A stretch of DNA of 50,397 bases from Acidobacteriota bacterium (GCA_051001345.1 JBPCNK010000126.1:1-50397); one strand, 5' to 3'. Counted from the stretch's first letter, positions 3,340-48,828 are shown. A program made the numbers and translations. The notes: generated by a model not told the origin, from the letters alone.

Positions 3340-3420
3340 CTATCTTTCTTTATTCTAGTGCCGTTTCCGATTCGTGCCAAGTCCCATTGGTCAAACGGCC
3401 GGATCCCAAGTTGTTTCTTA

Positions 3421-3898
3421 CCTTTCCACCGTTTGGGTGGTGGGGGACCTCTATGAACATAACTTCCGTGATGTTCGCATAGGATCGAGAGCACGGATCA
3501 CGACCGTCGCTTATCCCGGTCGAGAATTCCATGGAAAAGTCAGTTACATCGATCCCCAGGTCAATCCCGAGACGAGGACCAGCCGGGTCCGCGCCGAGGT
3601 GTCAAACTCGGATGCACGGTTTCGTCTCAACATGTTTGTCGAACTGAGGTTTGAAGGGCGAGGGGACGCAGTCATCAGCGTTCCGGAGCAGGCGGTTCAG
3701 TTTGTCGGGGACCGGGCGGTTGTCTACCAGCCCGATCCAAAGATTGCGGGGAAATTCCTGCAGAAGCCGGTCGAGCTGGGCAACAAGGGCGCGGGTTCTT
3801 ACGAAGTGTTGGGCGGTCTTCAGCCGGGCGGCCGAGTCGTCACCAAGGGGAGTTTCATATTGCGTTCAGAAAGTCTGAGGATGAATCCACAACAATGA
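3421..3898 (+). pseudogene. C-terminal fragment of an RND periplasmic adaptor (duplicate of 15573-16050)
   Basis: Nucleotide similarity to the 3' end of the adaptor gene at 14842..16050 starts abruptly at CCTTTCCACCGTTTGGGTGG. The translation LSTVWVVGDLYEHNFRDVRIGSRARITTVAYPGREF...RSESLRMNPQQ is near-identical. There is no N-terminal part. Confidence 0.85.
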
Positions 3899-9158: not shown

Positions 9159-9194
9159 CTGGCGACTGGCGACCGGCGACTGGCGACTCTCTCG
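9159..9194 (+). repeat. GGCGACT-type heptamer run (same motif as in the Rep-A cassettes)
   Basis: CTGGCGACTGGCGACCGGCGACTGGCGACTCTCTC. As in Rep-A, it sits just upstream of a promoter-like region and a small Cys-rich ORF. Confidence 0.85.
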
Positions 9195-9733: not shown

Positions 9734-12700
9734 ATGATCGATCGGATTATTGAATTCTCAATTCGAAACCGCTTCCTGGTGGTGCTCACCTACGCACTGC
9801 TGGCGGGACTGGGCTATTGGGCGCTGCTGACGACGCCCATCGACGCGATTCCCGATCTGAGCGATAACCAGGTTATTGTTTTCAGCGACTGGCCGGGGCG
9901 CAGCCCGCAGGAAGTCGAAGATCAGATCACTTACCCTTTGACAACAAGCCTGCAGGGACTTCCGGATGTGCGCGTGGTCCGTTCTTCTTCGGCGTTCGGT
10001 TTCTCGATGATCAACGTCATTTTCGAAGACCGCGTCGACTTGTACTTCGCGCGCACACGTGTCCTTGAGCGGTTGAACCTGGTCACAAAGAGTTTGCCCG
10101 CGGGGGTCGTGCCGACGCTTGGACCAGACGCCACCGGCGTCGGCCATGTGTTCTGGTACAGCGTCGAAGGACCCCTCAGTCTGCTGGAACTCCGTTCGCT
10201 GCAGGATTGGTACGTCCGCTACCAGTTGAACTCCGTTTCGGGTGTGGCCGAAGTCGCCAGTGTAGGCGGGCAAGTCCAGCAATATCAGATCAACGTCGAT
10301 CCGGTTCGCCTGCGCGCCTTCAAGGTTCCGATGAGCTCCGTGGTGGCTGCGGTGATGTCCAGCAATAAGAACGTGGGTGGCAACGTCCTCGAAACCAGCG
10401 GCGCGTGGTCGGTCGTTCGAGGTATCGGTCTGATTGGCTCCATCCAAGACCTCGAAGAGATCGCCGTGGCCGCACCGGGCGGCGTGCCCGTTCGTGTTCA
10501 GGATGTAGCGGAAGTACGAATTGGAAATGCCTATCGGGCCGCCGCGCTCATCAAGAATCGAGAGGAGGTCGTGGGCGGAGTCGTAGTAGCCCGCTACGGC
10601 GCAAATACGCAGCAGGTCATCGACGCCGTAAAAGAAAAAATTGCGGCTCTGGCTCCCGGACTTCCACAGGGCGTCACGATCGTTCCCTTCTATGACCGGT
10701 CGGATTTGATCCAACGGTCGATCGCCACTCTGCGAAGAGCGCTTATCGAAGAAATTCTTCTGGTGACGATTGCCCACATCATCTTTCTGCTTCACTTTCG
10801 CAGCATTCTGATCGTCACGATCCCTCTGCCGCTTGCGGTCTTGATCTCCTTCCTGTTCATGAAGCAGATGGATATTTCATCGAACATCATGTCGCTGGCC
10901 GGAATCGCCATCGCCATCGGCGTTCTGGTGGATGCAGGGATCGTTGTGACCGAGAACGCGTTTCGTTTCCTCGAGCAACGGCGAGTGGACCCCAAGGACC
11001 GGCCGCTTGTGACCGCCACCGTCCTGGAAGCGACGCGGTTGGTGGGGCGGCCGATTTTCGCGTCCATGGCGATCATCATACTGGCCTTCGCGCCCGTATT
11101 TGCCTTGACTGGGCAGGAAGGAAAACTCTTTCGGCCGCTGGCCTTCACCAAAACCTTTGCAATGGTCGGCGCTACTCTGATTGCGGTGACACTGGTCCCG
11201 GTTCTTTGCACGTACTTGCTGGGCGGCAAGTTCCACCGCGAAGAAGACAACCCTGTGATGCGGCTTCTGGTCGGGATTTACCGGCCCGTACTTCGGTTCG
11301 CCTTGCGTCACAGGAAAACGACCATCGCCGGCGCTGTGGTTCTTTTTGCGATCGCGCTTTGGATGATTCCTCAAATCGGTACGGAATTCATGCCGCCGCT
11401 GAACGAAGGGGATCTCATGTTTATGCCGATCGCGGATCCCGGCATTTCTCTGCCTCAGGCGATCGCGATCGCTAAGAAGCAGGACGATGTAATCCGTAGC
11501 TTCCCGGAAGTCGCGTCCGCGGTTGCCAAGATTGGACGAGCCGATACGTCAACCGATCCAGCGCCTGTCAACATGACGGAAACGATCATCAACTTGAAGC
11601 CTCCGGAACAATGGCGCGCGGGGGTGACGCGCGACAGCCTCATTGCAGAAATGGACCAGGCGATCGCGCTGCCAGGTGTCACCAACATCTGGACCCAACC
11701 CATCATCAATCGCATCAACATGCTCACCACCGGGATCCGGTCCGAGGTAGGAGTGAAGGTTTTTGGAGGCGACTTGAAGGTGCTGGAGGCCAAAGCGCGC
11801 CAGATTGCCGCGCTGGTAAAACAGGTCCCCGGCGCCGCCGATGTCTATCCCGAGCAGATCCTCGGAGCGCCCTATCTGGACATCGACATTGACCGGCAGG
11901 CTGCCGCCCGCTACGGAATCGGCGTCGAGGAGATTCAGAATTCGATTGAAACCGCAATCGGAGAAACTGTCCTGTCGACGACCATTGAGGGCCGTCGCCG
12001 CTTTGCGGTTCGGGTGCGCTACGCACTGGAACACAGAAATGACATCGCGGCGCTCAAGCAGGTTCTGGTCGATGCGCCGGCCGGCTTTCAGGTTCCCCTG
12101 GGGCAGTTGGCTGCTTTCCGAACGGTTTCAGGGCCGTCGATGATCTCCGGCGAAAATGGCCTGCTGGTCGCGACGGTGCTCCTCAATGTTCGCGGCCGGG
12201 ATGTCGGCGGCTTTATCAGCGAGGCCCAGTCGCTGATTCGGGACCGGCTGGAACTCCCACCCGGTTACTACGTCGGCTGGAGCGGTCAATACGAAAACGA
12301 GATTCGTGCGCGCGCAAGGCTGCAGCTTGTGGTCCCAATCGTCGTGGTGATTATTTTTCTGGTGCTCTATCTCACGTACGGCTCGTTTCTGGAAGCGGCG
12401 CACGTGTTGCTGGCCGTCCCGTTTGCCCTGACCGGAGGCGTATTTCTCCTTTACTTCCTTGGCTACAACTTCAGTGTCGCCGTCTGGGTGGGTTTCATCG
12501 CTCTGTTTGGAACAGCCGTTCAGACCGGCGTCGTGATGGTGATCTACCTGCACGAAGCCGTGCGGCGCAGAGCGGACGCTTTGGGACGGCTGGATCGCAA
12601 GAGTTTGATTGAGGCGATCGAGGAGGGAGCGTTGCTGCGCCTCCGGCCGAAAGTGATGACCGTCAGCACGGTCATTGCCGGGCTCTTGCCGATCATGTGG

Positions 12701-12895
12701 AGCACCAGTACCGGCGCCGAAGTAATGAAACCTCTGGCGACGCCGGTACTGGGTGGAATGGTCAGCTCGCTGTTGCACGTTTTGGTCGTAACGCCGGTTC
12801 TTTTTTCCTGGATTCATGAACGCAAGACAGGGGTCAGGGGTCAGGGGTCAGGACGTGATCGTGCTCGTGGCCGTGCTCGTGGCCGTGCTCGTTGA
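9734..12895 (+). CDS. CusA/CzcA-family heavy-metal efflux RND pump (system 1)
   Basis: 1053 aa with typical HME-RND sequence throughout ([16 protein letters not shown]..., 12-TM layout, large periplasmic loops). The last ~23 codons ([21 protein letters not shown]) are encoded by the repeat module and may not be native. Confidence 0.9.
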
Positions 12896-12974
12896 CGTGA
12901 TCGTGCTCGTGCTCGTGGTCGTGGCCGTCGTCGATTACCCGTACCCTTCCGGGTACGGCACTGACATCGGCGGC
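12829..12974. repeat. Intercistronic module, copy 1: (GGGGTCA)3, (NNCGTG)x14 hexamer array, 8-bp hairpin, conserved tail
   Basis: AGGGGTC x3 (12829-12851). Hexamer array at 12852-12935, with 11 of 14 units ending CGTG. Hairpin CCGTACCC-TTCC-GGGTACGG (12939-12958). Tail CACTGACATCGGCGGC. It is paralogous to 30464-30585. Confidence 0.85.
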
Positions 12975-13131
12975 AATCCCGGATTCATGAGCACTGCCAT
13001 GAAAATAAGCGCCGATTCGTCTGTCAGTGCCGTCATGTTCAGTGCCGCGACCGCAGGGAGCGGCTCCGCAGCACCATCTAAAAGAAGCACACGCGACATG
13101 AAATGGGGATTCACCAAACCTGGAGGAAACC

Positions 13132-13554
13132 ATGCAAAGAGTACTGTGCGCCATTGTGGGACTGCTGCTTTTGGCTAGTACGATTCCGGCCTGCCGTCAA
13201 CCGTCGGAGGGCGATTGGAAGCAAGTGGCCAGTGCCGACATCAGCGAAGGGAAAGTCGTAGTCAAGAGCGCCGCCGGAGACCTGAAGGAAGGAAAGAACG
13301 ACATTCGCATCGAGTTCGTCGATGCCGGCGGCAACCTGCTGCCGGTCGAACACGCCGAAGCATCCGCCGCGATGCCGATGCCGGGCATGAGTCCCATGAC
13401 CACATCCATGGAACTGAAGTCCACCGCTGAAGAGCCGGGCCGGTTCACGGCGCAAGCTAACTTTGAAATGCGAGGGGGCTGGCAATGTTCAATCCAATAT
13501 CGTCTGAAAACGGGAGCATCGGGTTCGGCCGCTTTCAACCTTAATGTCAGGTGA
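13132..13554 (+). CDS. YtkA/FixH-like periplasmic lipoprotein with a Met-rich segment
   Basis: GGAGGA SD and lipobox-like LLLASTIPAC. AAMPMPGMSPMTTSMELKSTAEEPGRFTAQANFEMRGGWQCSI fits the YtkA-like pattern as I remember it. Confidence 0.6.
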   Translation: MQRVLCAIVGLLLLASTIPACRQPSEGDWKQVASADISEGKVVVKSAAGDLKEGKNDIRIEFVDAGGNLLPVEHAEASAAMPMPGMSPMTTSMELKSTAEEPGRFTAQANFEMRGGWQCSIQYRLKTGASGSAAFNLNVR

Positions 13555-14845: not shown

Positions 14846-16050
14846 AGCATCGACGATTGCTCATCGCCTCCGTCCTGGTTCTCGTATCGCTGCTGGCGGC
14901 AGCGGCCTGGTGGGTGAGCCGAGAGCGAGAGCGAAGTGCGGCGGTCGAAGTACCTCGTTCAATTTCTCCTCCCGCCAAAGCGTCTGTTCCTGCGGTGGTG
15001 GTTGTTCAACTGGATGGTGAATCCGCCAAGCGCGCCGAGATTCAGACGGCGGCTGTGGAGACGCGACCCGTCGCGCAGGAGATCCGGGCTCCAGGAACGG
15101 TCGAGCCGAACCAGTATCGCAATGTAACAGTTTCCAGCATCGTCGCCGGAACGGTCACGGCTGTCACGGCAAAACTGGGCGACTTCGTCGGCCGGGGCAG
15201 ATCCTTGGCGACGATTTCCAGTAAGGAGGTCGCAGAAGCACAAAGAGCGTACGTAACCGCCGCGGCTATGGTTGAAGCCGATCACAAGCGAGTGGTCCGG
15301 ACCGAGAAACTACTTGCCATTGGCGCGGCCAGCCGCCAGGAGCTGGAAGCCGTGCAAGCGGAGCACGCCGAGCACGCAAGCGAACTGGAGTCGGCGCGGG
15401 AGCGCCTGCTGCAGATGGGCATCAATGCGGCGACGATTGCGAAGTTGACCAGCGCGACGGCGATCGGCGCCGATATTTCGGTCGCATCTCCGATCGCGGG
15501 GACCGTACTCGAAAGGAAGATCAACCTCGGACAAGTCATTTCCGAGGGCGTCGAGATGTTTACGGTCACCGACCTTTCCACCGTTTGGGTGGTGGGGAAC
15601 CTCTATGAACAGAACTTCCGTGATGTTCGCATCGGATCGAGAGCACGGATCACGACCGTCGCTTATCCCGGTCGAAAATTCTATGGAAGAGTCAGTTACA
15701 TCGATCCCCAGGTCAATCCAGAGACGAGGACCAGCCGGGTCCGCGTCGAGGTGTCGAACCCGGCTGGGCGGTTTCGTCTCAATATGTTTGTCGAATTGAG
15801 CTTTGAAGGGAAAGGAGACGCCGTCGTCAGTGTCCCGGAGGAAGCGGTTCAGTTTGTCGGGGACCTAGCAGTTGTCTACCAGCCCGATCCGAAGATTGCG
15901 GGGACATTCCTGCAGAAACGGGTCGAGCTGGGCAACAAGGGCGCGGGTTTTTACGAAGTGTTGGGCGGTCTTCAGTCGGGCGGCCGAGTCGTCACCAAAG
16001 GGAGTTTCATATTGCGTTCAGAAAGTCTGAGGATGAATCCACAACAATGA
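14842..16050 (+). CDS. RND efflux periplasmic adaptor (CusB/CzcB family, system 1)
   Basis: 402 aa with a membrane anchor, coiled-coil region (QRAYVTAAAMVEADHKR...) and beta-barrel C-terminus. The 3' 478 nt are duplicated at 3421-3898. Confidence 0.85.
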   Translation: MKHRRLLIASVLVLVSLLAAAAWWVSRERERSAAVEVPRSISPPAKASVPAVVVVQLDGESAKRAEIQTAAVETRPVAQEIRAPGTVEPNQYRNVTVSSIVAGTVTAVTAKLGDFVGRGRSLATISSKEVAEAQRAYVTAAAMVEADHKRVVRTEKLLAIGAASRQELEAVQAEHAEHASELESARERLLQMGINAATIAKLTSATAIGADISVASPIAGTVLERKINLGQVISEGVEMFTVTDLSTVWVVGNLYEQNFRDVRIGSRARITTVAYPGRKFYGRVSYIDPQVNPETRTSRVRVEVSNPAGRFRLNMFVELSFEGKGDAVVSVPEEAVQFVGDLAVVYQPDPKIAGTFLQKRVELGNKGAGFYEVLGGLQSGGRVVTKGSFILRSESLRMNPQQ

Positions 16051-16242: not shown

Positions 16243-16290
16243 CCTGGGAACGCGCGCGTCTCGCGCGCCCGCGCTCCCAGGAAAGTATTT
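16243..16290 (+). terminator. GC-rich hairpin followed by a T-run (possible intrinsic terminator of system 1)
   Basis: CCTGGGAACGCGCGCG-TCT-CGCGCGCCCGCGCTCCCAGG followed by GAAAGTATTTT. The stem is imperfect. Confidence 0.4.
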
Positions 16291-16403
16291 TCATGGAGCG
16301 TTCATGAATCCGGGGATTCATCACCCGGGATGAAAATGGGGTGAGCCAGGGTAGACTATTGCGAAGTGCAGCCGCAGTTCAGCGCCGCGACCGAAGGGAG
16401 CTG

Positions 16404-16710
16404 GTCCGTTAATTGTGGCGCCGAACAAAAGCGCGGTCGCAAAAAAGCCGGGCACGTCAAGATTTTCTGGCGACTGGCGACTCTCTCGCGACTGGCGACT
16501 CGCGACTCTGAGGTACAATCAAAGCGAGATGCGGGGCTACGCAGCTATCTTTCTTGTACTGAGCATCGAGCTCGATCTTGGGCTTTGCCGTCTCCTGCGA
16601 CGATGACGCCTTCGCGTGTCAGCCACAGCAAAATCACTCAGCCGGGTATTCGAGACCCCCGCAACCGAACTCCTAATCACTAAACTGTGCGTAGGTATAA
16701 GGAATTCATC
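16404..16710 (+). repeat. Rep-A copy 3: small ORF truncated by an internal deletion
   Basis: Has the same blocks as copies 1 and 2. The small ORF reads MRGYAAIFLVLSIELDLGLCRLLRR and then stops. It ends with AAGGAATTCATC ATG of the next gene. Confidence 0.8.
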
Positions 16711-17667
16711 ATGAAAATACCGGTACTGCTCTGTGCAGTGGTCTTTCTCAGCTCGTGTCTGTTTGCTCAAACAGGGATCTCGCACTCCTTGAGTCTGCAG
16801 GAAGCCCAGACAATAGCACTGCGCGACAACCCACAGTTGAAGTCTCCGGCAGATGAAGTGAGAGTCAAGCAGGCTGATGTTGTTTCGGCCGCAATGAGAC
16901 TCAATCCCGTCTTCAGTTTCGATGGCGATGGTATCAGGCGCCTAACGTGTTTGAGCGGCTTTGATTTTCCTGCAGCGACCGCGTACGGTTCGCCCAGTGC
17001 GAGGCCAGGTGCGTTTCCGAGTTCGGCGCCCCAGCCCGTCGTTGCGCTGCCGACCAAGCCTGGAAGCCACGGTTTCCAGTGGACACCGGCGCTGCGGCAA
17101 TCGCTGCTCTTCCTTGGGCTGCAGCACGGCTACATGCTGACCGAAGAAAAAACCCAGCGAGAGTTGGGCGGTCCCTTTTTTAGGGACTACTTCCGTTCCC
17201 TCTCTCATCTCAAGGGCTGGAAAGACGGCGGGCGCCAGTTTACAAATTACTTGGCACACCCCATGCAAGGATCGTTCTATGGTTTTATCCAGGTGCACAA
17301 CGACCCACACGGCATTAGCCAGGCCTTCGGGCCCTCGGCCCCATATTGGAAGAGCCGCTTGAAAGCGCTGGCATGGAGCGCTGCCTGGAGCACTCAATTT
17401 GAATTGGGACCACTTAGCCAAGCATCGGTCGGCAATGTTGGCTTGCACAAGCGGAAGCTGACGTATGTCGATCTGGTGATCACTCCCACGCTGGGTACAG
17501 CATTACTGATTAGTGAGGATGCCTTGGATCATTACGTGACGCGCTGGGTTGAACGCACGACCGGCAAGAAACTTGTCATAAATTCGGTCAGAGTTCTCCT
17601 GAATCCAACACGAAGCTGCGCCAATATGATTCGGTTCAGGACACCTTGGCATCGGGATCGTAAGTAA
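16711..17667 (+). CDS. Chimeric secreted protein, paralog of 341..1291
   Basis: MKIPVLLCAVVFLSSCLFAQTGISHSLSLQEAQTIALRDNPQLKS...NPVFSFDGDGIRRL, then the same unknown C-terminal domain. It is near-identical to copy 1 apart from a short variable linker. Confidence 0.6.
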   Translation: MKIPVLLCAVVFLSSCLFAQTGISHSLSLQEAQTIALRDNPQLKSPADEVRVKQADVVSAAMRLNPVFSFDGDGIRRLTCLSGFDFPAATAYGSPSARPGAFPSSAPQPVVALPTKPGSHGFQWTPALRQSLLFLGLQHGYMLTEEKTQRELGGPFFRDYFRSLSHLKGWKDGGRQFTNYLAHPMQGSFYGFIQVHNDPHGISQAFGPSAPYWKSRLKALAWSAAWSTQFELGPLSQASVGNVGLHKRKLTYVDLVITPTLGTALLISEDALDHYVTRWVERTTGKKLVINSVRVLLNPTRSCANMIRFRTPWHRDRK

Positions 17668-24962: not shown

Positions 24963-25586
24963 TCACTTTGCTTTGCCGGCGAATACCAGGTCCGAAGGCT
25001 GCCAGTCGGAACACTGGGTATTTTCGAATGCGGCCATTCCTCCGACGACGTTCTGGACGTGAAAACCTCGCGAGGCCAGCAGGCTGGCTGCAATACTGCT
25101 GCGATACCCACTCCCGCAGACCACGGCAAGCGGCTCGTCCCGCGGCAGTTCTGAAAGTCGGAAGAGAAGGCGCGGCAGTGGAATATGGATGGCGCCGTTG
25201 ATATGAGACTGCGTCCACTCGGCCGGTGTTCGCACGTCGAGCACCCGCGGGGCTGCGCCTTGCTCGAGCGCCAGCTTGAGATCGCACACGCTGCGCTGCG
25301 CGAGCGTTGCCGCGGCGCCAAGATCGGACGCAAGAGTGAAGCCGTCGATATTGTCGTACCCGATGCGCGCCAACTCCAGTTGCGCACGCAGCAGATCCGC
25401 TTGCGTTTCCACAACCAGAACTAACCGGGAACGAAAGTCCACCAAAAAGCCGGCCCAGGTCGAAAACATGGGGCTGTCAATACCGATGTTGAGACTGCCC
25501 GGGAAATGCGCCTCCCCGAAGCGGGCCGCATGCGTGCCTGCCCGGCCTGCTGACGCACCGAGCCACGCGCGTAAGCAAGTGGGCAA
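24963..25586 (-). pseudogene. C-terminal tandem-rhodanese part of an MBL-fold/rhodanese protein; N-terminal MBL domain missing
   Basis: FGEAHFPGSLNIGI...RIGYDNIDGF (inactive rhodanese), then VLDVRTPAEWTQSHINGAIHIPL...VVCGSGYRSS (active-site Cys). The coding similarity ends where the palindromic element at 25561 begins. Confidence 0.6.
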
Positions 25587-25675
25587 TCAGTGGCGACATT
25601 CTGACCGTCGTACAACCGAGCACTAATAGTGTTCATGTTGCCTCTGATTGCCCGCTCGCTTACGCGCGCGGCCCG
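25561..25675. repeat. Palindromic ~110-bp element (Pal-1), copy 1
   Basis: Arms CGCGCGTAAGCAAGTGGGCAATCAG (25566-25590) and CTGATTGCCCGCTCGCTTACGCGCG (25644-25668) are reverse complements, with one mismatch and one G-T. The ~53-nt loop is conserved with the copies at 46551-46770. Confidence 0.85.
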
Positions 25676-25735
25676 GTAACGGCACACCGGCCGAGCGGCC
25701 GGTGACACTCCTGCCGCCAGCCTGACCTCCGACTA

Positions 25736-29154: not shown

Positions 29155-30458
29155 GCCCGCTGCTGAGCCAGCGCAGGATCATCCTTGGCGCCGCAGTACT
29201 GGCGGCAGCCGCTTTGATTCTGGTTTATGTGTTTTGGCCCCGTCCCACGGCGCGGGAGACCGACGCTGGTCCGGCCGTCGCCCAAGCGGCCGGGACGGTG
29301 CAATTCCTGATGGAGCAGCAGTGGCTCATCCGCATGAAGCTGGCGCAAGTTGAGCAACGGACGGTAGCCCGGCAGATCACAACAACGGGCCGCGTGGTCC
29401 CGGCCGCAAACAGTCATGCGGTGATCGCTCCACCGGTCGGAGGGATCATCGCGGGCACACAACTCGCACGCATCGGACAACGCGTTTTGAAAGGACAGAC
29501 CCTCGCAACCGTTCAACAGACCGCCAGCTCCGCCGAGCAGGCGCAAGTACGGGCAGCGGCGGCACAAGTTCAATCTCAGAATGCCCAGGTGGCCATCGAG
29601 AATGCGCGGCTTGAAGCGGAACGCCGCACTGCGGCAGGCGATGTGGAGTCAGCTCGCTTGCGCTTGGAACTGGCGCAGAAAGAGGCTGATCGCGCCCGCC
29701 GGCTCTACGACCAGAAGGCTTTCGCGCTGCGTCAGCTCCAGTCAGCCGAAACCGAACGCGATGCGGCAAGTGCCGCCTACAAAGCGGCCGCCGAGCGCAG
29801 CGCAGCGCTGGCTGCCGCGCGCCCGGTCGCGCCGTCCAGCGCCGGCGTTGGCAGCGCCAATGCCTCCTACGTTGTGCGCGCCCCGCTCAGCGGCTATGTC
29901 ACCAAGGTCAACAAGTCCATCGGCGAACAGGTGGCGCCAGGAGAAGCCATCCTTGAAGTCAGCAGCCTCGAGACGGTATGGGTCGAAGCACCGATCTTCG
30001 AACGTGATTTAGGCCGATTGGGCCGTAACGCTGCCGCGTCTTTCACAACCGCGGCTTACCCGGGCCGAGAGTTTCGCGGCAGGGTCGTAGACCTCGGAGC
30101 GGTGATCGATGAACGGACGCGCGCAGCTACAGTGATCTTCGAGGTGCCCAACGCGGGTCATTCGCTCCGCATCGGGATGCAGGCTGACGTTCGGCTGGAT
30201 GCCGGCCAATCGGTAACCGCGATGATGATCCCGAAGGAAGCGGTGCTCGACAACGAAGGGAAGAAGATTGTCTACGTTCTGCTTTCAGGCGAGGAGTTTC
30301 AGCGGCGCGAGGTGGCGCTTGGCGATGAGTATGGAGACCAGGTGGCGGTGCTCTCCGGTCTCCGATCCGGCGAGCGCGTTGTCACACAAGGAGCTTATCA
30401 GCTCCGCTTGCAGGAGCTGCGGCCAGCCGCCACGGGCGCCCATTCGCATGAGACTTAG
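29151..30458 (+). CDS. RND efflux periplasmic adaptor (system 2)
   Basis: 435 aa with a membrane anchor, long coiled coil (AQVAIENARLEAERRTAAGDVESARLRLELAQKEADRARRLY) and barrel domains. Confidence 0.85.
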   Translation: MSPLLSQRRIILGAAVLAAAALILVYVFWPRPTARETDAGPAVAQAAGTVQFLMEQQWLIRMKLAQVEQRTVARQITTTGRVVPAANSHAVIAPPVGGIIAGTQLARIGQRVLKGQTLATVQQTASSAEQAQVRAAAAQVQSQNAQVAIENARLEAERRTAAGDVESARLRLELAQKEADRARRLYDQKAFALRQLQSAETERDAASAAYKAAAERSAALAAARPVAPSSAGVGSANASYVVRAPLSGYVTKVNKSIGEQVAPGEAILEVSSLETVWVEAPIFERDLGRLGRNAAASFTTAAYPGREFRGRVVDLGAVIDERTRAATVIFEVPNAGHSLRIGMQADVRLDAGQSVTAMMIPKEAVLDNEGKKIVYVLLSGEEFQRREVALGDEYGDQVAVLSGLRSGERVVTQGAYQLRLQELRPAATGAHSHET

Positions 30459-30463
30459 AAATA

Positions 30464-30585
30464 GGGGTCAGGCTTCAGGGGTCAGGGGTCAGGACGTGAT
30501 CGTGCTCGTGGACGTGATCGTGCTCGTGGTCGTGAGCGGCTTGGTGTGCCCGCGACCTTCCGGTCGCGGCACTGCCATCGGCGGC
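30464..30585. repeat. Intercistronic module, copy 2
   Basis: GGGGTCAGGCTTCAGGGGTCAGGGGTCAGG. Seven NNCGTG hexamers (30493-30534). Hairpin CCGCGACC-TTCC-GGTCGCGG (30550-30569). Tail CACTGCCATCGGCGGC. It sits between the adaptor and the pump. Confidence 0.85.
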
Positions 30586-30620
30586 CTCATCCTGACGTTG
30601 ATTTGAGAAGACAGAATTAA

Positions 30621-33600
30621 ATGCTGAACAAGATTATCCAATGGTCTCTCAAGAATCGTCTGCTCGTGCTGATCGCGGGCGTTGTGTTGCTCATCTACGG
30701 CGGCATCGTGGCGCTTGGCGCCCATGTGGATGTCTTTCCCGATCTGACGGCGCCTACCGTCACCATTCTGACTGAATCGCATGGCCTGGCGCCCGAAGAG
30801 GTCGAATCTCTGGTAACGCTGCCCATCGAGGCGGCGATGAACGGCGCCGCGGGTGTCTTCCGCGTGCGCTCCAACTCGGCGATCGGCATCTCGATCATCT
30901 TCGTCGAGTTCGAGTTCGGCACCGATATCTACCGCGCTCGTCAGCTTGTCACCGAGAAACTGCAGCAGGTACGGATGCCCGCCGGCGTCTCCGCTCCCGT
31001 GCTCGGTCCGATCTCCTCGACGATGGGCGAGATCATGCTCATCTCCATGACGAGCAAGACGACCTCGCCGATGGAGTTGCGTTCGCTGGCCGATTGGGTC
31101 GTGCGCCCGCGCCTGCTGGGCGTCTCCGGCGTGTCGCAGGTCATGATCATCGGCGGCGAGACCAAGCAGTTTCAGGTTCTGGTGGATGCGGCCAGGCTGG
31201 CCGACTACAAGTTGACGCTGGAGGAAGTGACAAGGGCGGTGAGCGCTTCAAATGCCAACGCCGCGGGTGGTTTTCTGGAGCGGCCCAACGAGGAGTTTTT
31301 GATTCGCGGTCGGGCGCGCGTGTATTCCCCCGAAGATCTCTCCAACTCGGTGATCACGGTGCGCGAGGGAACGCCCATTCTCATCGGAAACGTCGCCACC
31401 GTCAGGGCTGGGGCGGCGCTCAAGCGCGGCGACGGAAGCTTCAATTCGGAACCTGCGGTGGTCGCCACCATTCAGAAGCAACCCAATGCCAACACACTGG
31501 AGCTGACGGAGAAGATTGAGGCGACGCTGGCCACCGTGAAGGCGACGCTGCCGCCCGATGTGGTCATCGATACCCGGGCGTTTCAGCAAGCCGACTTCAT
31601 CAAGCGCGCCGTCGGCAACGTGAAAGCGTCGCTCATCGAGGGCGGTATCATGGTGACCATCGTGCTGTTCCTGTTTTTGTGGAACTTCCGCACGACGTTC
31701 ATCAGCCTCATGGCCATTCCGCTCTCGCTTCTGTCGGCCATCCTGGTGATGAGTTACTTCGGAATCACGATCAACACCATGACCCTCGGTGGCCTCGCCA
31801 TCGCCGTCGGTGCGCTGGTCGACGACGCCATCATTGACGTCGAGAACGTATTCCGCCGGTTGAAGCAGAACGCGCAACTACCGATACCCGCGGAGACCGC
31901 CACGGTAGTCTTCAAGGCCTCCAGCGAAATCAGAAACTCGATTCTTTTTGCCACCCTCATCATCATTCTGGTTTTCATGCCTCTGTTGAGCCTGAGCGGA
32001 TTTGAGGGGCGTATGTTTGCGCCGCTCGGTTTCGCTTACATCATCTCGATCTTTGTCTCGCTGGTTGTCGCCCTCACCATCACGCCCGTGCTTTGCTACT
32101 ACTTGCTCGGAAGCTCTAAGCTCATCGAGGACGAGAAGGACTCACGGCTGGTCGCCTGGCTCAAGCGCCGCTACGCGCGGATTCTCCCTTGGACGCTGCG
32201 CCGTCCCTACCAGATCGTCGCCGCTTCGGCGGCGATGCTCGTCCTTGCCGTGTTGCTGGCGCCTTTGATGGGCCGGGAGTTTCTGCCCCCCTTCAACGAA
32301 GGCACGCTGAACATCAACGCGAGCCTCCCGCCGGGCACCTCGTTGCGAGAGTCGAACCGGATCGGCAAGATTATCGAAGAAGTAATCCGTCAGACCCCGG
32401 AAGTAGTCTCGACGACGCGGCGCACCGGGCGTGCCGAGCTCGACGAACACGCCGCGGGCGTCAATACGAGCGAGATCGAAGTCGTCACTGAGGAAAGCGA
32501 GAGGAAGCATGCGAAAGTGATGGCTGAAGTCAGGCAGAATCTTGAGCGGCTTCCCGGCGTGACTGCTGAAGTCGGCCAGCCCATCTCGCATCGCATCGAT
32601 CACCTGCTGTCCGGCACGCGCGCGCAAATCGCAATCAAGCTGTTCGGTTCCGACCTGGCGACGCTGCGCGGCAAGGCAGAGGAGATTCGCGCGGCGATGC
32701 AGGGTGTGCCCGGCATCGTGGATCTCCTGGTCGAGCCGCAGGTGGGCGTGCCCCAGGTCCAGATCAACCTGAACCGCAAAGCCGCTGCCGCGGTCGGCTT
32801 ACGCGCCCAGGACCTGGCCGAAACCGTGGACACCGCTTTCAACGGCCACGTCGCCTCGCAGGTGCTGGAAGAGCAACGCACCTACGACGTGCTCGTGCGC
32901 TTGGATGACTCGGCGCGTCAATCGGTCGAATCCATCAGCCGTACTCTGATTGACACTCCAGCCGGCGCCAAGGTGCCCATCGGCCAAGTCGCCGAAGTTC
33001 GCGTGGATCAAGGGCCCAATACGATCAACCGCGAAAACGTCCAGCGCCGCATCATCGTTCAAGCCAACGTGGCGGACCGGGATCTGGGCAGCGTGATTGC
33101 AGACGTTCGGGCGGCCATCGACTCGAATGTATCGTTGCCGCAAGGTTACTTCTTGCAGTACGGCGGGCAGTTCGAGTCGCAGGAACGAGCGTCACGGCGC
33201 ATACTGCTGCTTTCCGTTGCCGCTATCGGAGGCATTTTCCTCTTGCTCTACATCGCGCTCAAATCGGCGCGGTCGGCCCTGCTGGTCATGGCCAACCTGC
33301 CGCTGGCGCTCATCGGCGGCGTGTTCATGGTCTTTCTGTCGGGGGGGACGCTCTCGATTGCCTCGCTGGTGGGTTTCATCACTCTGTTTGGCATCGCAAC
33401 GCGCAACGGGATCATGCTGATCAGCCACTACAGCCACCTGATGGAAGAGGAAGGCGTCGGATTTCGCGATGCAATCGTTCAAGGGTCCATGGAGCGGCTC
33501 AGCCCGATCCTGATGACCGCGCTTGTAACCGGGGCGGGACTCATTCCGCTCGCTCTGGGGGCCGGCCAACCGGGCAAGGAAATTCAACAACCGATGGCGA

Positions 33601-46550: not shown

Positions 46551-46770
46551 CCGGGCCACGCGCGTAGGTAAGTGGCCAATCAGAGGCGACATTTTGACCT
46601 TCGTGCAACCGAGCACTAATCGTGTTCATGTTGCCTTTGATTGCCCGCTCGCTTACGCGCGTGGCCCGGAAGTGGGCCAATCAGAAGCAAGATTTTGACC
46701 TTTGTACAACCGAGAACTAATAGTGTTCATGTTGCCTCTGATTGCCCGCTCGCTTACGCGCGCGGCCCGG
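46551..46770. repeat. Pal-1 palindromic element: tandem copy A (46551-46669) and left-arm-truncated copy B (46670-46770)
   Basis: Copy A arms are CCGGGCCACGCGCGTAGGTAAGTGGCCAATCAG and TTGATTGCCCGCTCGCTTACGCGCGTGGCCCGG. Both copies share the loop GACATTYTGACC...CAACCGAGxACTAATxGTGTTCATGTTGCCT with copy 1 at 25561. Confidence 0.85.
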
Positions 46771-46779
46771 TAATGGGTC

Positions 46780-48703: not shown

Positions 48704-48828
48704 GCCAGTAGGCAGCGGGCAGTAGGCAGCAAAATCTGCCGACTGCCCACTACCTTCCGCTACCACCTGCTGCCTTCTGCCTACTGCCTACTGCCTTCTG
48801 CCTACTGGAGCCTGAAGCCTGAAGCCTG
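48704..48828. repeat. Imperfect long palindrome of CAGTAGGCAG-type decamers, followed by (AGCCTGA)2
   Basis: Left arm GCCAGTAGGCAGCGGGCAGTAGGCAGC. Right arm GCTGCCTTCTGCCTACTGCCTACTGCCTTCTGCCTACTGG. Then AGCCTGAAGCCTGAAGCCTG and a TACAAT box at 48830-48835. Confidence 0.8.

Follow-up and report, generated by a model that had tools for sequence, protein, structure and literature searches.

The window analysed here, a 50,397-nt stretch of an Acidobacteriota genome (GCA_051001345.1, JBPCNK010000126.1:1-50397), is a metal-resistance region. Besides two resistance–nodulation–division (RND) efflux systems, it encodes MerR, MerT-HMA, a P-type ATPase, and a multicopper oxidase, and it also contains gene fragments and several segments duplicated within it. 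The closest named relatives of the pump genes are in metagenome-assembled genomes (MAGs) of Acidobacteriota and Pyrinomonadaceae. A short module, composed of G-rich heptamers, an array of hexamers with a CGTG core, a GC-rich hairpin, and a tail, accompanies both pumps and is the subject of this study. At locus 1 the gene order is RND (cusA type), module copy 1, YtkA-like, outer efflux protein (OEP), and membrane fusion protein (MFP, the adaptor); at locus 2 it is BlaI/BlaR-like, YtkA-like, OEP, MFP, module copy 2, and RND. The cusA-type open reading frame (ORF; 9734–12895) enters copy 1 for 22 codons and ends there, which bears out an earlier observation that copy 1 supplies the end of this ORF; beyond copy 2, the RND start codon is at 30621.

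On the G-rich strand, we distinguish four sub-modules: three to four GGGGTCA-type heptamers (H1); the CGTG-core array (H2); a short, variable spacer followed by the GC-rich hairpin and a 16-nt tail; and, in the fuller copies, a further segment (R) (coordinates are collected in Table 1). The preliminary description of this DNA had listed heptamers, an NNCGTG array, a hairpin with a TTCC loop, and a tail as shared by both copies, and all four parts are present where it placed them; its array sizes of 14 units (11 perfect) against seven were likewise confirmed, and array length is thus variable. Its extent for copy 1 holds for the parts up to 12974, but the element continues to approximately 13007. 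The copy 1 heptamers were detected by TRF at 12828–12852 (period 7, 3.6 copies, 100% match), and the copy 1 array has a period of 12 nt (5.3 copies), with the cusA stop codon (TGA) inside an imperfect hexamer unit (CTCGTT/GA). The copy 2 heptamers begin 5 nt past the stop codon of the adaptor gene. In the window, the tail sequence has exactly two occurrences (0.09 expected), the heptamer block has six matches (0.46 expected), and perfect stems of at least 6 bp around a TTCC loop are confined to copies 1 and 2. A chance origin of these shared parts can be excluded. The DNA of the two copies is identical in 78% of aligned columns and in 89% over a 65-nt core, and includes an identical run of 36 nt.

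The module did not travel with the genes beside it, given that the flanking proteins of the two loci are only 28–35% identical (RND 35%, adaptors 28%, and no detectable similarity between the YtkA-like proteins), compared with 78–89% DNA identity between the modules. Four orthologous BlaI/BlaR-YtkA-OEP-MFP-RND operons (L108, L109–111, L112–115, and L116; RND proteins 85–86% identical) retain the whole operon of locus 2 and an adaptor ending in ...GAHSHET-stop. Their adaptor–pump spacers are 13–66 nt long, mutually unlike, and without the module, and no module-like motif was found in approximately 20 kb around each operon; the spacer of L116 consists of 13 nt with a Shine–Dalgarno sequence only. 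Because the orthologous spacers are short, variable, and module-free, copy 2 is an insertion. At locus 1, 119 cusA homologues of 70–74% identity encode ordinary hydrophilic C-terminal tails, and the sole close cusA relative (contig L107; 98% protein and 92.6% DNA identity) has the module there as well. In L107 the heptamers are GGGGTCA GGCTTCA GGGATCA GGGGTCA followed by an extra TAACCA, the array is unlike that of copy 1, and cusA ends at a TAA directly after the heptamers. Thus, the module evolves more rapidly than the gene that hosts it, and the tail that it gives CusA is not conserved.

Further copies are found away from the pumps. A word-indexed protein search with the antisense ORF of the module retrieved one relative (P0001), and a profile that combined three antisense peptides retrieved four module-bearing small ORFs among 1.84 billion representative proteins. 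P0001, P0242, and P0245 represent three loci on three contigs of one NCBI Acidobacteriota MAG (ACR2L2_11430, _02125, and _20220), and P0243 is from a 16-kb JGI metagenome contig (L117); the three MAG copies are known from peptide and locus-tag records, and comparisons of P0001 rest on its peptide sequence. A profile built from the DNA copies then matched a second copy on L117 and, weakly, a third copy in the window at approximately 16.3 kb. Contig L117 encodes no RND pump; its two copies (A and B) are both within a larger duplication, beyond the 3' end of an unrelated gene (for a 1126-aa protein), with TonB, kinase, and esterase genes nearby. The third window copy is between the locus-1 adaptor gene and an ORF at 16687, and has neither heptamers nor array. 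The module is therefore placed independently of neighbouring genes, with empty orthologous sites and several copies per genome. The preliminary description had presented it as a conserved intercistronic module beside both RND pumps; a tie to such pumps is not supported, given the orthologous operons that lack it, the L117 copies beside unrelated genes, and the MAG with at least three copies on three contigs, and the link with pumps does not hold generally. Indeed, the additional copies are largely of the kind that the same description had named as counting against it, namely copies lacking hairpin covariation and located at random.

Comparison of the copies reveals a modular composition with slippage-prone tracts, in which the number and period of heptamers and hexamers change from copy to copy. 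Local expansion of the arrays followed different periods, 12 nt for copy 1 and 18 nt for copy 2 against 6 nt (CACGTG) for L117, which is the signature of replication slippage; across copies the array ranges from 5 to 14 units. The further conserved segment of the element (CCGGATTCATGA...CATGAAAATA) follows, in the fuller copies, the pattern TTTTCATCC...CCGGATTCATGAAC.CTGC.ATGRAAATAC. The R segment is present in copy 1, in the 16.3-kb copy, and in L117 copies A and B, and is missing from copy 2. Past the tail, copy 1 and L117 copy A have CCGGATTCATGARCACTGCYATGRAAATA in common, and L117 has 42 extra nt between tail and R segment that are absent from copy 1 and, judging by the peptide, present in P0001. 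The hairpin cassette is intact, decayed, or swapped depending on the copy: in L117 copy B the hairpin and tail are replaced by another hairpin, GACAGGCT-GGA-AGCCTGTC, which has three occurrences on the contig, and a perfect 12-nt inverted repeat (12955–12966 and 13022–13033; ACGGCACTGACA/TGTCAGTGCCGT) links the copy 1 tail to an inverted, degenerate copy of hairpin and tail to its right. Other palindromes were noted in the same DNA. On the plus strand of the third copy, a palindrome TGAATCCGGGGATTCA (from 16305) is nested between ATTTTCAT and ATGAAAAT. A REP-like (repetitive extragenic palindromic) hairpin, GGGACAGGCT-TCC-AGCCTGTC, occurs three times on L117 (5190–5250 and 13031), two of them in tandem, and long GC-rich inverted repeats based on CCTGGGAGCGC occur on L117 (7434–7507 and 12863–12936) and in the window (16243–16281).

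Five sequences can be aligned over the hairpin stem, and these comprise two stem types, one in copy 1 and L117 copy A and the other in copy 2. The stem is perfectly paired in copies 1 and 2 despite six base differences (three compensated pairs), and pairing is clearly kept in the intact copies. This compensation had previously been read as evidence of selection on structure, an argument that is weaker than it first seemed: three pairs are compensated and both stems are perfect, but all three double-changed pairs are in copy 2 and mutually adjacent, the compensation amounts to one block change rather than three independent events, and stems elsewhere are decayed or swapped. In a covariation control, 74 of 500 shuffles reached three double-changed pairs; 77.5% of cells in the alignment are paired. 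Two partial copies in the window have the copy-2-type 3' arm (GGTCGCGG), but no 5' arm complementary to it. The same stem pattern would arise from a known mutational route, the templated correction of a quasi-palindrome. When the whole window was compared with Rfam at gathering thresholds, no family matched, and neither module matched one even at E ≤ 1. A scan for intrinsic terminators found no site at either module, and there is no U-run; what comes after the stem is CACTG when read in sense, and GTAATC or GCACAC when read in antisense.

These data bear on an explanation that we consider unlikely: that the module is a selected cis-acting RNA element of metal-efflux operons, recruited to both of them so that its hairpin, and perhaps also the G-rich and CGUG tracts, would determine how stable or how well translated the messages of adaptor, pump, and downstream genes are relative to one another. 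Such a role would account for the location of two of the three window copies between co-transcribed efflux genes, for perfect stems with a conserved loop and tail, and for retention of the module at the cusA site in L107, a lineage 7% diverged in DNA; unrelated stems of 7–8 bp can also be read from the sequence of the orthologous spacers in L108 and L109. It is difficult to reconcile with orthologous operons that do without the module, with copies that are beside unrelated genes or have a decayed or replaced hairpin, and with the lack of an Rfam match and of significant folding z-scores. We also rejected a conserved intercistronic hairpin as a general feature of these operons: some of the orthologous spacers have stems, but the 13-nt spacer of L116 does not accommodate this proposal.

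The hairpin-carrying copies share one regularity, in that they are directly downstream of a co-oriented gene. The G-rich strand is co-oriented with the upstream gene in copy 1 (and L107), copy 2, and L117 copy B, with the heptamers overlapping the stop codon or 0–6 nt from it (5 intervening nt in L117 copy B). Heptamer-bearing copies thus appear to land or survive just past the stop of a co-oriented gene, where they would be transcribed within the operon mRNA. The only component for which an effect is plausible is the stable 8-bp stem-loop (−14.5 to −16.5 kcal/mol); by analogy with REP stem-loops, it could act as a barrier to 3'-exonucleases or as a processing point, which would uncouple the amounts of upstream and downstream message. 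The stem might be kept perfect either by selection for such an RNA effect or by templated correction within the palindrome.

A direct repeat of 13/14 nt at 12806–12819 and 12977–12990 (TCCYGGATTCATGA), which 0 of 2000 shuffles reached, pairs the 3' coding end of cusA (W-I-H-E; TCCTGGATTCATGA) with the element's own TCCCGGATTCATGA. We rejected this repeat as a target-site duplication because its right arm, which recurs in L117 and in the 16.3-kb copy, is part of the element, and on the same evidence rejected the downstream frame RIHEHCHENK... as a displaced cusA tail; the repeat may instead represent microhomology used in insertion or recombination. There is no target-site duplication at copy 2 (best 8/14, reached by 1992 of 2000 shuffles). 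Terminal inverted repeats were not found, as the ends AGGGGTCAGG... and ...CATCGGCGGC / ...ATGAAAATA are not complementary. No transposase was found, and Pfam identified no REP-associated tyrosine transposase (RAYT) among approximately 40 large ORFs of the window. A diversity-generating retroelement target, which is pictured as a variable region followed by a hairpin of 8 bp with a 4-nt loop, was also entertained and dropped: indels and changes in repeat number, rather than substitutions specific to adenines, distinguish the copies, and Pfam matched no reverse transcriptase to the large ORFs scanned in the window, although an Avd-like gene is present in the adaptor–pump spacer of another genome. 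A speculative and rather improbable extension would make the element a new kind of non-autonomous mobile unit that moves with neither terminal inverted repeats nor target duplications, its hairpin and conserved tail recognised by a single-strand-specific (Y1/HUH-type) enzyme encoded elsewhere, that inserts one way past stop codons and whose exchangeable hairpin and length-variable tracts tune the stoichiometry of operon products, here of adaptor to pump in metal-efflux systems.

On the antisense strand, the array reads (His-X)n and ends in LTPDP-stop at the heptamers in both copies, as had been reported. It was also reported correctly that copy 2 lacks a start codon (no ATG, GTG, or TTG in the His frame after the preceding stop), which makes an antisense gene unlikely there. 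The CACG core leaves all three frames of the C-rich strand open across the array by construction, and the codon after His always begins with G, and hence encodes D, E, G, A, or V; (His-X)n is therefore a by-product of the core. The residue after His varies among D, E, G, and V (HVHVHV in L117, VHEHVHERVH in P0001), with no conserved acidic partner. The His-frame ORFs are unrelated or frame-shifted in their parts ahead of the module (MFTGNG..., MRILNM..., MKIFSL..., and MNPEIY...), and from the one conserved ATG (TTCATGAATCCGG) the frame runs for 9, 9, 17, or 53 codons depending on the copy. We regard it as extremely doubtful that the C-rich strand encodes a small His-rich metal-binding peptide (...HDHV-LTPDP) duplicated around the genome. 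Such a gene would explain why no copy interrupts the His frame before the heptamer stop and why four copies elsewhere have been called as ORFs of 53–67 aa, and it would suit a metal-resistance region. Nevertheless, the ORFs begin with unrelated N-terminal parts, a start is missing from copy 2, the post-His residue is as free as any NN after CACG, and no protein family beyond the module carriers was found among the 1.84 billion representatives; that the copies surfaced as called ORFs is an ascertainment effect. From these sequence comparisons, we conclude that the His-rich peptide is a by-product rather than a gene, and that the database ORFs are spurious calls.

The sense strand also contains ORFs, at 30448–30606 (copy 2) and 12816–13178 (copy 1), each with an in-frame ATG 12–16 codons before the array; the former ends 15 nt before the RND start, and the latter overlaps the YtkA start. 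Bridging ORFs are described for mycobacterial interspersed repetitive units (MIRUs; PMC3184786), and an ORF of this kind, which would span the insertion and might keep translation coupled, would fit the in-frame ATGs of both window copies and the approach of their ORFs to the downstream starts. This we judge to be very unlikely: both ATGs were created within the host gene, not by the module, through a synonymous choice of His codon (CAT-GA, against CAC in L107 and the orthologues), the frame is closed by TAA in L107, and in L117 it reads DVHVHVHV with no downstream gene to couple.

At the DNA level, the module could be imagined as phased CGTG or palindromic regulator sites, or as a heptamer G-quadruplex, acting on transcription or replication. 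The CGTG core recurs at 6-, 12-, or 18-nt periods, the symmetric changes in the palindrome would suit a dimeric site, and the TACCC-N4-GGGTA of copy 1 resembles what we take to be CsoR-type operators. G-rich heptamer repeats of other bacteria form G-quadruplexes in vitro (PMC4692102). However, array length is unconstrained, the palindrome differs between copies with no matching regulator identified, and no promoter-like site was found at the modules. Each window copy has only three runs of at least three Gs, which makes a canonical intramolecular G-quadruplex impossible, and ViennaRNA with G-quadruplex folding enabled placed none in the minimum-energy fold; the G-rich structure suggested in the preliminary description is thus not supported by the model, and a DNA-level role of either kind is highly improbable.

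Taken together, the element is probably a lineage-restricted interspersed mosaic repeat of approximately 120–200 bp in a clade of soil Acidobacteriota, represented in the window by two copies and a third partial one, and it is neither a pump-specific control element nor a hidden His-rich gene. Several points weigh against its being an interspersed repeat. The element has no transposase, terminal inverted repeats, or target-site duplication, and its mobility is deduced from distribution only. The known copies amount to approximately eight sequences from approximately four organisms, which are small numbers for an 'interspersed family'. Two pattern scans gave no further copy: the loop-and-tail pattern TTCCGGNNNNGGCACTGNCATCGG had 51 hits in 241 million metagenome records, all of them chance occurrences within coding genes with no array or stem, and GGTCAGGGGTCAGGNCGTG had 54 hits in 185,579 species genomes, none a true module; the element is therefore rare, unlike the abundant classical REPs. 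Two of the three window copies are in metal-efflux operons, a location that could reflect function and not only chance or local copying. The six compensated changes in the copy 2 stem are most simply read as kept pairing; whole-module RNA folds are not more stable than shuffles (z = +0.61 and −0.46), and any RNA-level role of the module is one that we infer. Two scans of viral contigs and one plasmid BLAST also gave no match, and approximately 250 kb of related DNA yielded no TTCC-loop hairpins besides those of the known copies. Breaks within the module are seen in two Logan short-read contigs, L001 (which starts at 12946, in the hairpin loop) and L107 (which ends in the array); the repeat fragments assemblies, and this may explain why few copies are on record.

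Table 1. Sub-modules and copies of the mosaic element in the window (nt positions of the 50,397-nt stretch; all energies are for the hairpin as RNA).
Feature	Coordinates	Strand	Sequence or remark
Copy 1, H1	12829..12851	+	AGGGGTC x3 (12829-12849) + AG; within the last cusA codons
Copy 1, H2	12852..12935	+	14 NNCGTG hexamers, perfect CGTG core in 11
Copy 1, hairpin	12939..12958	+	CCGTACCC-TTCC-GGGTACGG; 8 bp, ~-14.5 kcal/mol
Copy 1, tail	12959..12974	+	CACTGACATCGGCGGC
Copy 1, R (partial)	12975..13007	+	AATCCCGGATTCATGAGCACTGCCATGAAAATA; outside the coordinates of the preliminary description
Inverted, degenerate hairpin-and-tail copy	13028-13070	-	GCTCCCTGCGGTCGCGGCACTGAAC...; just right of copy 1
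Third, partial copy	16283..16409	-	Decayed hairpin and tail CTCCCTTCGGTCGCGGCGCTGAACTGCGGC, then full R TTTTCATCCCGGGTGATGAATCCCCGGATTCATGAACGCTCCATGAAAATAC; nhmmer E=1e-4
Copy 2, H1	30463..30492	+	AGGGGTC AGGCTTC AGGGGTC AGGGGTC (to 30490) + AG
Copy 2, H2	30493..30534	+	7 NNCGTG hexamers, all perfect; 18-nt period
Copy 2, hairpin	30550..30569	+	CCGCGACC-TTCC-GGTCGCGG; 8 bp, ~-16.5 kcal/mol
Copy 2, tail	30570..30585	+	CACTGCCATCGGCGGC; R absent

Other repeats are present in the window. Fragments of OEP and adaptor genes are at 2117–2632 and 3374–3898. One segment is triplicated (137–340, 1612–1885, and 16382–16656) and two are duplicated (328–876 and 16698–17252; 3420–3719 and 15572–15871), all at 86–94% identity, and these include upstream regions and bodies of paralogous genes without a Pfam match; the metal-resistance island has been rearranged repeatedly. 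A 101-nt tandem unit (2.1 copies, 46570–46777), with a third copy (91%) 21 kb away (25558–25676), represents a further family of dispersed repeats. Tandem arrays of period 7 number at least eight in the window. Several heptamer arrays other than those of the module, mostly intergenic or upstream, are at 1715–1737, 9159–9188, 16467–16508, and 48706–48828 (units CTCGCGA, CTGGCGA, CAGTAGG, CTGCCTA x10, and CTGAAGC), and the genome seems prone to repeats of this period.

Beyond the window, the scan of species genomes pointed to three Acidobacteriota MAGs with a possibly related palindromic GGGGTCAGGNCGTGAATC(C)GTGAA element. Its palindromic or tandem GGGGTCAGG-N-CGTGAATC(C)GTGAA units (L064, 448–499; L074, 3396–3452; L101, 2299–2413) have arms of 23–32 nt that are 91–100% complementary, and may be related, distantly, to the module's head of heptamers plus CGTG units. 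Among the relatives of locus 2, the adaptor–pump spacer of the JGI 3300078620 contig with P0125 holds, according to its gene table, a 34-aa ORF and a 97-aa PF05635 (23S_rRNA_IVP, Avd-like) gene, and this spacer seems to be a recurrent insertion site. In L109 (13184–23126), the orthologous czc-type operon adjoins genes for a relaxase (MobL/Relaxase), a coupling protein (TraG/TrwB-like), and AAA proteins, and is at the edge of a conjugative element in that MAG.

Recognition of the element as a repeat removes a false lead, in the form of a His-rich 'hidden gene' or a pump-specific riboregulator, and documents a new interspersed mosaic repeat in Acidobacteriota, in which small repeats are almost unstudied. 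In practical terms, the element breaks short-read assemblies, spawns spurious calls of small 'hypothetical proteins', and has given CusA a different C-terminus in this lineage. Should its hairpin act on mRNA, the element would provide a natural case of a repeat insertion that re-tunes the expression of a tripartite efflux operon. Repeats of this general kind will not surprise specialists; it is the composite build that is unusual, and the family that is new.

Among known systems, the REPs and bacterial interspersed mosaic elements (BIMEs) of enterobacteria and pseudomonads are often found between co-transcribed genes, where they can stabilise upstream mRNA (PMC3184786). Like these, the element combines short GC-rich extragenic stem-loops with other motifs in variable mosaics, is often between co-transcribed genes, and is without the terminal inverted repeats and target duplications of miniature inverted-repeat transposable elements (MITEs); its palindromes (8-bp stems, 4-nt loop, −14.5 and −16.5 kcal/mol) also correspond to the GC-rich imperfect palindromes of approximately 20–40 nt, capable of folding into a stem-loop, that characterise REPs and BIMEs. 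Unlike REPs, as these are defined in PMC3733652, it has no shared GTAG/CGTC at the stem foot, where copy 1 has ATTAC/CACTG and copy 2 has GTGTGC/CACTG. In addition, it contains two microsatellite tracts, no RAYT was seen nearby, and its known copy number is very low: three in the 50-kb window, at least three in one MAG, and two on a 16-kb contig, compared with tens to hundreds of REP/BIME copies per genome.

G-rich heptamer simple sequence repeats have been described in Xanthomonas (GGGAATC) and Nostoc (GGGGA(C/T)T, STRR-type), where they lie between co-oriented ORFs on the coding strand and either overlap a stop codon or are 0–50 bp from it (Rehm et al., 2015; PMC4692102). The module resembles these in having a G-run heptamer in three to four tandem units at the stop of a co-oriented gene, with unit number and sequence that vary between close relatives. 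It differs in its unit (GGGGTCA), in having three G-runs where a G-quadruplex requires four tracts, and in that the heptamers are one part of a larger element. With MIRUs it has in common an intergenic location in operons, a probable presence in polycistronic mRNA, filled and empty sites, GC-rich internal inverted repeats, and, in the two window copies, ORFs that overlap the flanks (PMC3184786). MIRUs, however, are whole units of 40–100 bp in tandem at approximately 40–50 loci, whereas the element is single at each site, its tandem units are only 6–7 nt long, and its bridging ORF, although it occurs in copies 1 and 2, is absent from L107 and has no role in L117, and so is not a conserved feature. 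Like MITEs, it is small, non-coding, and dispersed, has filled and empty sites, and can form secondary structure; unlike MITEs, it has neither terminal inverted repeats nor target-site duplications. The element thus resembles REP/BIME, MIRU, and heptamer repeats, yet departs from each of them in a defining feature, and the best-supported assignment is to the general class of bacterial interspersed intergenic repeats, as a hitherto undescribed member outside any named family.

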